Source: Patescibacteria group bacterium (GTDB lineage Bacteria > Patescibacteriota > Patescibacteriia > 2-01-FULL-39-33). Taken from it: 64,000 nucleotides of DNA. Position numbers and translations under genes: made by a program. The stretch covers positions 701,181-765,180 of the forward strand of contig JBAZKF010000001.1 of NCBI GenBank assembly GCA_041650895.1, given 5' to 3'. This document shows, one piece after another, positions 58,567-61,500 of this stretch. The first letter of the stretch is position 1; each line of letters begins with the position of its first letter. The notes beneath the pieces were generated by a model, which worked only from the letters and a program-made list of their open reading frames with translations, had not been told where the DNA came from and did no database searches.

Positions 58567-61500
58567 ATGGAAGAAAAAAAGTGGGTTAATCCGATTCCGG
58601 AAAGAGAGCGGGAAATCCAAAAATTTTGGGCGGACAATAAAATTTTTGAGAAGTCTTTGGAACAAACCAGGGCCGGCGAGGCTTACAGTTTTTATGATGG
58701 CCCGCCGTTTGCTACGGGTACGCCACATTACGGCCATATGGTTGCCAGTCTGATGAAGGACGTGGTGCCGCGATTTTGGACGATGCGTGGCAGGTATGTG
58801 GAACGTCGCTGGGGTTGGGATTGCCATGGCCTGCCAATTGAAAATATCGTAGAGAAAGAATTGGGCTTTAAAAGCAAAAAAGATATTGAAGATTACGGCA
58901 TCGGCAGATTCAACGAATATTGTCGCAGCAAGGTTTTGGTTTATGTCGAGGAATGGAAGAAAACCATCGCCCGTTTCGGTCGTTGGGCGGATATGGATAA
59001 TTCTTATAAAACCATGGATCTGCCTTATATGGAATCAATTTGGTGGGTGTTTAAGGAATTATATGATAAGGGTTTGGTGTATGAGGGTTATAAATCCATG
59101 CATATTTGCCCTCGGTGCGAGACGACTTTGAGCCAGCAGGAGGTTAGTGAGGGTTATAAGGATATCAAAGACCTATCAGTAATCGCTAAGTTTAAATTAA
59201 AGGCTGGACAAAAAATTAGAAATTTTATTACCGATGATAATACTTATGTTTTGGCGTGGACGACTACGCCCTGGACTTTACCCGGTAATGTGGCGCTCGC
59301 AGTGGGGGAAGACGTGGATTATGTTTTATTTAAAAGATATGACAATAAAAATGACGTTGAAGAATCTTTTATATCTTCCAAACAATATTTTAAAACGTTA
59401 GGTAATATAAATGGAGAAATGGCATATTTTCGGGATGCCGGTAATGATCCGTATGTTCGTTATGGAAAAGAAGAGTTAATCAAAGAATTCGGAAGTCTAG
59501 AATTGATTGATAAAAAATATCAGCCATTATTTCCATATTATGAAAAAGTTGCTGATATTTACGGAGCACCAGACTCTCAAATTAACCCAGATAATAATAA
59601 GAGAAAAATTGGTAAGAGACTATTAAGTGGTAGTTATTCAGGTGCTCCTACGAATTGTTTTGATCGAGATGATTTAAAAGAATGGCATAAATGGGATAAT
59701 GCTTATAAAATTGTGTCCGCGGATTTTGTTACGACAGAGGACGGTACGGGCGTAGTGCACATCGCTCCGGCTTATGGCGAAGAAGATATGCAACTGGGTA
59801 AGGAAGAGAATTTGCCTATGATTCAGAACGTCACGTTTAATGGAAATTTTAAGGACGAGGTTGTTGATTTTTCTGGCCTGAACGTCAAACCGGCGGAAGA
59901 TACTAAGGCGACCGACAGGAAAGTCATTGAATATTTAGATAGGCATAATCTGCTTTTTGCCAGCGCCGAATACGAACATAGCTATCCGCACTGTTGGCGT
60001 TGCGACACTCCGCTTATCAATTATGCCACCAGCTCTTGGTTTGTTAAGGTAACAGACATTAAATCAAAAGCCTTAGAGACCGCTAAAGGCATTAATTGGT
60101 CGCCGGCGCATATTAAGGACGGACGGTTCGGCAAGTGGCTTTTGGGCGCGCGCGATTGGTCAATTTCCCGCCAGCGGTTCTGGGCCAGCGTTATTCCCTT
60201 GTGGCGTTGCGAGTGCGGTGAAATAAAAGTCATCGGCAGCGTGGCTGAGTTGGAAGAATTGAAAATAAATCGGAATAATTTTTTTGCCATCAGGCATGGC
60301 GAAGCGGAAAAGAATATCAAACACGTGTTTAGCAGCGGCCTGGGAGTTTATCCTTTGACAGCTAACGGCCGAGAGCAAATTAAAATCGCCATTGATAAAT
60401 TAAAAGACAAAAAAATCAGTTTAATCGTTTCTTCTGAAGTGTTGCGCGCCAAGGAAACGGCTCAGCTTATTGCCGAAGCCACGGGCGCGGAATTGATTTT
60501 TGATGCCCGCCTGAACGAGCTTAACGCCGGCGAGCTGGAAGAACGATCTGATGTTGACGGTCGAGCCAAGGAGGCTATTGCCAAGTGGAAAACCGATTGG
60601 GACGCGGCTTATCCCGGAGGCGAGAGTGTCCGGCAGGTGACGGAAAGAACTCTGGCGTTATACCAGGAATTAAATGAAAAATACGAAGGCAAAAATATTT
60701 TGTTGGTCAGCCACGAGGATACGCTCAAGTCGCTTTTAGGTAAGCTTTACGGTTATGAGCCGAGCCAGACCTTTGGGGATTTGGTGGCCGAAAAGGGGCA
60801 AGTGCTGGAAATAAAACAGAAAATAACCGATCTGCATAAGCATTTTGTGGATCAATGGCAGATCGTCTGTCCTAAATGCGGCCGGAGAATGGACAGAATC
60901 CCCGATGTTCTGGATACTTGGTTTGACTCCGGTTCCATGCCTTACGCCCAACAGCATTATCCATTTGAGAATCAAGAGAAATTTCTAGCTGGTTTCCCGG
61001 CGCAATTCATTGCCGAAGGCGTGGATCAGACGCGCGCTTGGTTTTATTATTTGCATATCATTGCCGCAGCCGTCAGAGGCAGTGAAGCGTTTAAAAATGT
61101 CATCGTTAATGGCATTGTTTTGGCTGAAGATGGCAAGAAGATGTCCAAACGCCTGCAAAATTACACGGAACCGGAGATAATCATGGATAAGTACGGCGCT
61201 GACGCGTTGCGTTTTTATCTTTTAACCGCACCAGTCATGTCCGCGGAGAATTTGAATTTTTCTGACGAGGCCGTTAAGGAAGCGATGCAAAAAGTCACCA
61301 TGTTATTGAATAATATCTTGAGTTTTTATAAATTGTACGAAACTCCCGGAATAGCGGCGTCCCAGTCAGCCAGGAGTAATAACATTTTAGACAAATGGCT
61401 GTTTGTGAAATTGAATTTGTTGATTTTGGAAGTGACCAAGAATATGGAAGCCTACGATCTGCCACGCGCCACCCGGCCTTTGGCTGAATTTATTGATGAG

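Follow-up and report, generated by a model that had tools for sequence, protein, structure and literature searches.

A histidine phosphatase domain nested in the CP3 zinc knuckle of an isoleucyl-tRNA synthetase from Patescibacteria

Background

Bacterial aminoacyl-tRNA synthetases are usually held to be architecturally conservative, catalytic additions being mainly eukaryotic and located at the termini. The type-2 isoleucyl-tRNA synthetases (IleRS2) of T. thermophilus (1ILE), P. megaterium (8C8V) and yeast (8WND) consist, in order, of a Rossmann fold, a connective peptide (CP) core, the subdomains CP1, CP2 and CP3, an anticodon-binding domain and a DUF5915-type C-terminal domain, with HIGH and KMSKS motifs and, in T. 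thermophilus, a zinc motif in CP3. The subject of this study is the ileS gene in a 64,000-nucleotide stretch of DNA (hereafter the window) from a Patescibacteria group bacterium (assembly GCA_041650895.1, contig JBAZKF010000001.1, positions 701,181 to 765,180). Its product has the same domain order, signature motifs and CP3 zinc motif, but it also carries within CP3 a histidine phosphatase domain, and a CP3-inserted domain is present in none of the solved or described IleRSs.

Several described proteins resemble this architecture in part. The model NF040702 (ileS_w_GNAT) is a curated precedent for an IleRS with an additional enzyme domain, but the extra domain is a GNAT rather than a histidine phosphatase; the present protein scores 296 bits against its cutoff of 1999, and no Pfam acetyltransferase domain was found in it. 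The histidine phosphatases CobC, PhoE, PspA and GpgP share the size (~180-210 amino acids), predicted fold and catalytic residues of the inserted domain, but are free-standing enzymes of defined metabolism. The RNase H/CobC-type acid phosphatase model NF005567 (Rv2228c type), against which the insert scores 87-91 bits, likewise combines a nucleic-acid enzyme with a small histidine phosphatase, but there the two are joined end to end and no catalytic core is interrupted, and its cutoff of 326 bits is missed. TFIIIC tau55/Sfc7, compared by its description, places a histidine phosphatase domain of unclear role in tRNA-related machinery, but is a eukaryotic transcription factor unrelated to aminoacylation. 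Mycobacterial MutT1 unites the Nudix and RHG families, as do three IleRSs of the candidate phyla radiation (CPR) described below (P0039, P0082, P0087), and its RHG domain is used catalytically (PMC11784022, PMC12407098); unlike them, it is a plain two-domain protein and not an aminoacyl-tRNA synthetase, the RHG domain, of SixA-like type, has the phosphohistidine of sensor kinases as its substrate, and the likeness is at the level of the superfamily. MutT1 was also considered as a precedent for hydrolysis of nucleoside diphosphates by an RHG domain (conversion of 8-oxo-dGDP to the monophosphate), and was dropped: the activity of that domain was unknown and is now assigned to the phosphohistidine of sensor kinases (PMC11784022, PMC12407098).

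Taken singly, both parts of the protein are ordinary representatives of their families. Full-text literature searches found no description of a phosphatase embedded in an IleRS, and neither phosphatase nor Patescibacteria is mentioned in a 2026 survey of 96,219 IleRS domain architectures. Databases do contain the architecture, as precomputed Pfam matches and under generic names from the Joint Genome Institute (JGI) and NCBI, but it has been neither named nor interpreted.

Results and Discussion

An isoleucyl-tRNA synthetase interrupted by a phosphatase domain

The ileS open reading frame (ORF; 58567..62259, + strand) encodes 1230 amino acids without stops or frameshifts, and its product is identical to NCBI protein MFA5124924.1, labelled 'class I tRNA ligase family protein', from a metagenome-assembled genome of Patescibacteria. 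The original prediction, made from the letters and ORF translations of this DNA, had recognized an IleRS in this ORF, and profile matches assign it to that family unambiguously: the whole protein scored 834.8 bits against TIGR00392 (isoleucyl-tRNA synthetase, cutoff 621.4), fell below the cutoff of each of the NCBIfam valS, leuS and metG models, and matched the Pfam families tRNA-synt_1, Anticodon_1 and DUF5915. The tRNA-synt_1 match is divided into two parts by a match to His_Phos_1 (PF00300) at amino acids 574-734 (E = 8.1e-38, 130.5 bits against a gathering cutoff of 21.7), the family that the original prediction had suspected from short peptides. All peptides that it quoted lie where it had placed them: WRCECG at 546-551, FFAIRHG from 572, LRAKETA from 626, LLVSHED from 712 and CPKC at 768-771.

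The limits of the insertion were set by alignment to the 120 best database homologues of the whole protein, in which the segment spanning the zinc knuckle is strictly bimodal in length, with 43-46 amino acids in 59 proteins and 226-251 in 61. Together with the Pfam match and the predicted structure, this assigns the inserted His_Phos_1 (PGAM-like) domain to amino acids 564-750 (60256..60816, +), a length of 187 residues; the interval of 60265-60835 proposed at first was correct to within a few codons. The insert forms the tip of the CP3 hairpin (WRCECGEIKVIGSVAELE, insert, QKITDLHKHFVDQWQIVCPKCG), its junctions read ...AELE/ELKIN... and ...LEIK/QKITD..., and the linkers are short, with about eight residues on the N-terminal side and three to five on the C-terminal side. 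Alignment to insert-less IleRSs defines the N-terminal arm of the knuckle as WRCECGEIKVIGSVAELE (amino acids 546-563, 60202..60255, +), with C548 and C550, and the C-terminal arm as QKITDLHKHFVDQWQIVCPKC (amino acids 751-771, 60817..60879, +), with C768 and C771. The whole block between CECG and CPKCG had been taken as foreign, which is correct for the 187-residue insert but not for about 44 residues between the Cys pairs (GEIKVIGSVAELE ... QKITDLHKHFVDQWQIV), which are native CP3 hairpin common to insert-less IleRSs. All four Cys of the knuckle are kept in at least 90% of insert-bearing and insert-less sequences alike. The loop of a Cys4 zinc knuckle was thus rightly named as the site of insertion; in IleRS nomenclature this hairpin is the CP3 subdomain, which has a zinc motif in the IleRS of T. 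thermophilus but not in that of S. aureus or C. albicans (PMC7191050). The excess length had been underestimated: not ~190 but about 260 amino acids separate this protein from insert-less CPR relatives of 945-1010 amino acids, a difference that includes a 37-residue extension in CP1.

The possibility that two genes were joined by chimeric assembly or by a frameshift, which the original prediction had itself raised, has a negligible probability, and no point in its support was found. The ORF is uninterrupted; the insert has a GC content of 0.469 and a third-position GC content (GC3) of 0.519, near the 0.437 and 0.467 of the rest of the gene, which also gives no sign of recent import; the insertion point is the same in 61 database proteins and in at least 33 genomes that represent species and come from independent studies, with identities of 29-88%; and the same junctions are present in about 100 independently assembled, divergent homologues. 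An intein or other self-splicing element was rejected, no Pfam intein or Hint family being found anywhere in the protein. Inteins have a boundary pattern of a nucleophile and His-Asn, which is seemingly missing at the insert junctions.

The hallmarks of a histidine phosphatase that had been read from the insert form a full set. R576-H577-G578 (60292..60300, +), of which H577 is the predicted phospho-acceptor, has invariant Arg and His and 95% conserved Gly among the 61 inserts; the phosphate-pocket residue N583 (60313..60315, +), the second catalytic Arg, R627 of LRAKETA (60445..60447, +), and the second catalytic His, H716 of LLVSHED (60712..60714, +), are invariant; and E651 (60517..60519, +), the predicted general acid/base, is present in 98%. 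The structural motifs of the family (LT..G, S623, G655, E686, R694 and K709) are likewise conserved. The inserts diverge faster than the proteins that carry them, with a median identity to this protein of 36%, versus 59% for the IleRS bodies, and conservation of the catalytic set despite this divergence has the signature of purifying selection on catalysis or phosphate binding. On these grounds, a bifunctional architecture with an active phosphatase is highly probable.

Predicted structure

An AlphaFold2 model of amino acids 1-1100, built on an 82-sequence alignment, has a mean predicted local distance difference test (pLDDT) score of 87.5 and a predicted template modelling (pTM) score of 0.84. 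The insert is mostly above a pLDDT of 90; judged within this model, amino acids 570-750 exceed this value and show a beta-alpha-beta pattern with five strands. The phosphatase is confidently predicted to be a compact alpha/beta unit, and the remainder superposes on IleRS2 structures: a Foldseek search with the whole model matched yeast and P. megaterium IleRS2 and C. albicans and T. thermophilus IleRS with E values from 1.5e-75 to 1.7e-68. The only disordered regions are two loops of CP1, at amino acids 282-298 and 333-369. In the branch-1 histidine phosphatase fold, the RHG pocket lies at one end of strand beta-1, and both chain termini are on the opposite side. Since both termini of the insert are attached to the CP3 tip, its RHG pocket should face away from the attachment point.

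Distribution and evolution of the insert

The domain is present at the same site in 60 other cluster representatives among the closest homologues, with 45-81% identity over the whole protein and, among those listed, 32-88% identity of the insert over aligned positions. A scan of one genome per GTDB species found at least 33 further insert-bearing genomes, labelled Saccharibacteria, Peregrinibacteria/Peribacteria, Wolfebacteria, Taylorbacteria, Nomurabacteria, Paceibacteria and Minisyncoccia; the seven of these loci that were tested all gave a Pfam match to the domain. A phmmer search of 1.84 billion representatives with the insert yielded 1563 matches at E<=1e-10, and among the best 150, most of which were judged from length and domain position only, every multi-domain protein that was run through Pfam is an IleRS or an IleRS fragment.

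Within the IleRS family, presence of the insert is patchy. On a neighbour-joining (NJ) tree of 120 IleRS bodies, computed from BLOSUM distances without the insert columns, proteins with and without the insert are intermingled, and Fitch parsimony requires at least 14 changes. The body of the present protein shares 75-76% identity with three insert-less proteins (P0006, P0007, P0015), whereas its identity to most of the insert-bearing ones is only about 55-60%. Because of this patchiness, the domain appears to be dispensable for aminoacylation and to have been repeatedly lost or exchanged; its association with IleRS, as far as comparison of these sequences shows, is specific but facultative.

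The CP3 site may hold more than one phosphatase. One, two, three (P0303) or four (P0264) tandem copies of His_Phos_1 occur there, three and four copies being found in metagenomic proteins. Double domains are present in Saccharibacteria and Peregrinibacteria/Peribacteria (multi-domain variants at loci L003, L026, L027, L030, L031 and L033, besides P0264 and P0303). In one Saccharibacteria genome the double domain is a recent duplication, and in Peregrinibacteria/Peribacteria the second domain is of a different, RHGQTDWN-like subtype. The first domain of the Peregrinibacteria doubles sometimes reads RHA instead of RHG.

A second kind of small enzyme has entered CPR IleRSs: NUDIX domains, with intact or near-intact Nudix boxes, are inserted at two different positions of the CP1 editing domain. 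Subtype models (MutT-, RppH- and NudC-like) were matched only weakly and non-specifically, with scores far short of the cutoffs. The NUDIX inserts of P0039 and P0082 map to flanks 328 and 378 of the present protein, on either side of its lineage-specific disordered CP1 loop, the 37-residue extension at amino acids 333-369 (59563..59673, +; pLDDT <50). This loop is hence a second insertion hot spot besides the CP3 tip; its length is also seen in the spacing of the two editing motifs of CP1, which is 159 amino acids in this protein versus 117 in its closest relative and 92 in the insert-less P0006. A 1423-residue protein (P0087) combines a NUDIX domain in CP1 (amino acids 225-334) with His_Phos_1 in CP3 (648-826) and a C-terminal rhodanese domain (1317-1406). 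A 1066-residue IleRS-like protein (P0317, encoded at 6001-9201 of contig L089, adjoining proS and a 23S_rRNA_IVP gene) has a Y1 (IS200-like) transposase domain in CP1, at a position similar to the 333-369 loop as judged without mapping onto the alignment, along with His_Phos_1 in CP3 and a C-terminal GNAT domain in place of the anticodon-binding domain; it could be a degenerate or neo-functionalized paralogue, or a chimera.

Column-by-column comparison of insert-bearing and insert-less proteins gave no evidence of a conserved docking surface for the insert outside the knuckle: all of the IleRS-body columns that clearly differ by insert presence are in the knuckle itself. A secondary co-varying cluster at amino acids 901-925 was rejected as a docking surface; it is not common to this protein and looks phylogenetic. 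These results bear on whether the insert might be a ligand sensor or a structural or oligomerization module, which would bind a phospho-metabolite or nucleotide, or dimerize, and thereby modulate IleRS allosterically, turnover being incidental. The pocket residues would be equally conserved for binding, the short linkers would make a rigid tether, and the pTM of 0.84 suggests a defined arrangement of the two parts, but a module of this kind would not explain why the full catalytic set is kept, including the Glu as well as both invariant His, nor why the domain persists as a separate gene product (see below), and no surface of the IleRS body outside the knuckle co-varies with it; such a role has little chance of being correct.

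Stand-alone phosphatases beside ileS

The phosphatase also occurs as a separate protein, in a stand-alone family of at least 298 clusters at 90% identity. In a Staskawiczbacteria locus (L034), a free-standing phosphatase of 190-202 amino acids (5390-5998) is encoded between argS and an insert-less ileS of 947 codons, ending 4 nucleotides before the ileS start, and scores 177 bits against a hidden Markov model of the inserts, the level of true inserts. Among 46 genome loci, this was the only insert-less ileS neighbourhood with an adjacent phosphatase; conserved adjacency is therefore lineage-restricted, although several further contigs then confirmed it. The gene order argS-phosphatase-ileS(-recO) holds in five of these (L081 to L085), and a stand-alone gene of 180-200 codons is located 4-5 nucleotides upstream of insert-less ileS in L034, L083 (5001-5561) and L084 (5001-5609). 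Other ORFs lie between phosphatase and ileS in L081, L082 (phosphatase at 5001-5594) and L086 (1098-1676), and the phosphatase follows argS in L088. A more distant branch of the stand-alone family includes P0123, which a single ORF separates from an insert-less ileS downstream of it, and P0125, which is downstream of argS. The stand-alone gene beside ileS indicates that the enzyme is kept, and presumably functions, outside the synthetase as well. In a crude NJ tree, the ileS-adjacent stand-alone forms group with or inside the insert clade, while 17 of 23 stand-alone homologues retrieved by a search with the insert fall outside it.

The arrangement conserved in Staskawiczbacteria-like genomes is AA_kinase-argS-phosphatase-ileS-(x)-recO, often with 0-5 nucleotides between genes. 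In one Staskawiczbacteria lineage (L081/L082), the ORFs between phosphatase and ileS are a pair resembling a ribbon-helix-helix antitoxin and a YafQ-like toxin (5678-6161) and two unknown ORFs. JGI annotation labels some of the small stand-alone phosphatases 'isoleucyl-tRNA synthetase'. The basic charge of the ileS-adjacent stand-alone forms (median isoelectric point 9.8, net charge +15) was considered as a sign of RNA binding and rejected: neighbouring proteins unrelated to RNA are equally basic in the same genomes of 34-36% GC, and the stand-alone form is acidic in a genome of 47% GC, so that genome composition explains the charge, which is uninformative.

Relation to known phosphatase families

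The closest solved relatives of the insert are CobC (6nru, E = 2e-17; 6e4b), the phosphoglycerate mutase (PGM) of S. pombe (1fzt), PhoE (1ebb/1h2e), PspA (4ij5) and GpgP (4pz9). No subfamily equivalog cutoff was reached, and for that reason the substrate cannot be inferred by homology. Scores for CobC alpha-ribazole phosphatase were 94.5-99.7 bits versus 162.9 (TIGR03162) and 93-97 versus 250 (NF011580); for SixA (TIGR00249), 32.4 bits for the insert and 29-40 bits for stand-alone relatives versus 74.5; for PspA, 51-56 bits versus 350; and the GpmB and acid phosphatase models were below their cutoffs as well. Mupirocin-resistant IleRSs of the MupA/MupB type (NF000257/NF000258) were rejected as a match for the whole protein, the scores of 675 and 678 bits versus 1900 being due only to general IleRS2 similarity.

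These scores also bear on the proposal that the domain is a core enzyme merely fused to IleRS, such as cofactor-dependent PGM (dPGM) or phosphoserine phosphatase. The rationale for such a fusion would be that the genomes of CPR are minimal and that fusing genes saves regulation. The best NCBIfam model for two stand-alone relatives (P0144, P0239) is small archaeal dPGM, at 84-91 bits, and S. pombe PGM is the third-best PDB match to the insert. Yet the insert is far below the equivalog cutoffs for dPGM (models NF038349, TIGR01258 and others; 90-95 bits versus 225 for archaeal dPGM, and 38.5 versus 81.7) and for PspA. The substrate motif of dPGM is E-R-H-Y-G, and at this position (amino acids 651-655) the insert reads E-L-N-A-G. 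Moreover, frequent loss of the insert among close relatives would be odd for a core glycolytic step, and the proposal has only a scant chance of being right.

Predicted function of the embedded phosphatase

The reading that we favour, with a probability of roughly 0.45, is that the insert is an autonomous accessory phosphomonoesterase carried by IleRS. A single polypeptide would comprise two enzymes: a complete type-2 IleRS that charges tRNA-Ile normally, and a branch-1 histidine phosphatase of ~187 amino acids that short linkers join to the hairpin tip of the CP3 zinc knuckle. H577 would attack a terminal phosphoryl group held by R576, N583, R627 and H716; E651 would protonate the leaving group; and the phosphohistidine intermediate would then be hydrolysed. 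Like CobC or PhoE, the enzyme would most likely have a broad specificity for small phospho-compounds, whether of the nucleotide type or of other kinds. IleRS would serve as a carrier and a co-expression scaffold, with no channelling of an aminoacylation intermediate to a domain that is dispensable for aminoacylation. Autonomy is proposed because the phosphatase exists as a separate gene product, because it forms arrays, some of mixed subtypes, and is frequently lost, because other small enzymes have been inserted in the same host, and because there is no conserved docking surface; small compounds are proposed as substrates because the nearest relatives are small-molecule phosphatases; and uncoupling from the synthetic site is proposed because the RHG pocket should point away from the CP3 tip. 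Catalytic activity, the class of substrate and independence from the synthetic site are all inferred.

Three observations weigh against an autonomous accessory enzyme acting on small compounds. That IleRS is the only host among the multi-domain matches that were run through Pfam would be unexpected if the domain simply hitch-hiked, and suggests that its function is linked to tRNA-Ile, to IleRS or to its products. The class 'small-molecule phosphatase' is read from nearest neighbours only. Finally, conservation across inserts is poor in the cap region from E651 to H716, which would also fit a macromolecular substrate.

The original prediction had suggested, as speculation, hydrolysis of a phosphorylated nucleotide by-product, action on a 2'/3'-phosphate or cyclic-phosphate end of tRNA, or a role in regulation or inhibitor resistance. 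The phosphatase, with NUDIX where present, could be a built-in repair or immunity device that either clears phosphate or pyrophosphate blocks from the 2'/3' end of tRNA-Ile or reverses phosphorylation of the synthetase by a toxin, directly on the enzyme in need of a clean substrate, which is a speculative and somewhat unlikely proposal. The main rival to the favoured reading, judged unlikely, is repair of the acceptor end in cis: while IleRS holds tRNA-Ile, the phosphatase would strip the 3'- or 2'-phosphate off A76 and so restore a chargeable end. The phosphate would derive from an opened 2',3'-cyclic phosphate, or the block would be a pyrophosphate from a toxic small alarmone synthetase (toxSAS; CapRel/FaRel2 type), which in NUDIX variants the NUDIX domain would first cut to a monophosphate. 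In E. coli, the CCA-adding enzyme has an HD domain that acts both as a 2',3'-cyclic phosphodiesterase and as a phosphatase. A preprint on a CCA-adding enzyme contained nothing on an HD-domain phosphatase in CPR. Acceptor-end repair would fit the strict association of the domain with IleRS among the multi-domain proteins run through Pfam (best 150 of 1563 matches), its location in the CP region around the entrance of the active site, the independent NUDIX insertions at two positions of CP1, to which the CCA end binds in the editing state, the patchy and repeatedly lost distribution typical of stress and defence accessories, and the variable, short cap. On the other hand, such a device would protect one tRNA species only, it would need neither tandem arrays of two to four copies nor a stand-alone form acting in trans, and the topology of the fold would point the pocket away from the CP3 tip. 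No PADLOC-DB defence model matched the insert, a stand-alone homologue or the whole protein at E<=0.01, and the basic charge of the stand-alone forms is accounted for by genome composition. To our knowledge, and within a limited literature search, no branch-1 histidine phosphatase acts on RNA ends.

A role of the domain as a phosphoprotein phosphatase that removes phosphate from His, Ser or Thr of IleRS or of a partner is decidedly improbable. It might reverse inhibition by a HipA-like kinase toxin, or reset a phosphorelay as do SixA and the C-terminal domain of MutT1. HipA-like kinase toxins target other aminoacyl-tRNA synthetases, but we know of no report that a toxin phosphorylates IleRS, and no kinase was found beside ileS in any locus inspected. 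Proteins are substrates of some small bacterial RHG phosphatases: the C-terminal RHG domain of MutT1 dephosphorylates sensor kinases (PMC12407098), and SixA dephosphorylates Ndk (PMC12934123). MutT1, like some CPR IleRSs, pairs NUDIX and RHG domains (PMC11784022); the insert and its stand-alone relatives match the SixA model weakly, at 32-40 bits, and the variable cap would suit a protein substrate. These scores are, however, far below the cutoff of 74.5, and the domain is nearer to CobC/PhoE, with a Glu general acid and a cap.

Other features of the ileS gene and the window

The synthetase retains its signature motifs, with conservation as assessed in 82 aligned homologues. The HIGH signature is PHYGHM (amino acids 53-58; 58723..58740, +), in which H54 and G56 are invariant and H57 is conserved in at least 90%. 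The Thr-rich editing motif of CP1 is TTTPWTLP (232-239; 59260..59283, +), with T232, T233, P235 and W236 invariant, and the second editing motif, GTGVVHIAPAYGEED (393-407; 59743..59787, +), is of the GTG-x-VH-x-AP...D type, with G393, G395, G404 and D407 invariant. The KMSKS signature is KMSKR (858-862; 61138..61152, +), with K858 and K861 invariant. The anticodon-binding domain (PF08264, E = 2e-28) spans amino acids 942-1095 (61390..61851, +), and the C-terminal DUF5915 domain typical of type-2 IleRS (PF19302, E = 1.3e-20) spans 1089-1229 (61831..62253, +). The segment of ileS at 59150-59750 (approximately amino acids 195-395, in CP1) has a GC content of 0.31-0.35 versus 0.44-0.52 elsewhere in the gene, and may be recombinant or fast-evolving.

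The gene is preceded by a putative promoter and a structured leader of ~190 nucleotides (58311..58566, +). A sigma-70-like site is found at 58311-58339, and a terminator-like hairpin at 58508-58524, followed by a T-run, is located just before the start codon; the leader folds with a minimum free energy of -62.8 kcal/mol (z = -3.4). Within the leader are an AUC triplet and UGGUACCGC, which recalls the T-box sequence, but identification as a T-box was rejected, there being no Rfam T-box match even at E<=10; its sole Rfam match is to Burkholderiales-2, at a weak 27 bits. The leader may be a divergent attenuator or riboswitch. In the upstream neighbourhood (55766-58053), GC content is 0.53 at ~56000-56300 versus 0.26-0.34 in the ORF at 57190-58053, which is radical-SAM-like with a CxxxCxxC motif, and this suggests that the genes just upstream of ileS are mosaic or recently acquired.

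Neither a second ileS nor a paralogous phosphatase is present in the 64-kb window. The partial 23S rRNA gene at its beginning (1-2511) has 2511 nucleotides over only 1862 model positions (RF02541, 1064-2925) and contains a 161-codon ORF (1053-1538, +) with a LAGLIDADG-type motif, WIVGFTDGEGCF. Introns or intervening sequences with a homing endonuclease are common in CPR rRNA genes, and the extra sequence is probably of this kind, although no Rfam intron family exceeded its threshold in this gene.

Conclusions

An independent enzyme nested in the catalytic core of an essential synthetase, at the CP3 zinc knuckle, recurs across much of Patescibacteria. The insert-bearing group includes Saccharibacteria, some of which are culturable; loci L001, L003 and L008, among others, show the insert in uncultured relatives. 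A large unnamed clade of phosphatases is tied to IleRS, of which the NCBI label, 'class I tRNA ligase family protein', gives no hint. IleRS possesses two permissive insertion sites, the CP3 tip and the CP1 loop, which could serve engineering. The embedded phosphatase offers a testable entry into the translation-linked phosphate chemistry of minimal-genome organisms. Should it prove to be a house-cleaning enzyme with no relation to IleRS, it would be a striking example of a domain that hitch-hikes on an essential gene. If its substrate is tRNA or the synthetase, a new principle of quality control would be at hand, and a repair or immunity device would be without precedent both among aminoacyl-tRNA synthetases, as a built-in tRNA-end or self-repair activity, and among branch-1 histidine phosphatases, as a member directed at RNA or at an aminoacyl-tRNA synthetase.

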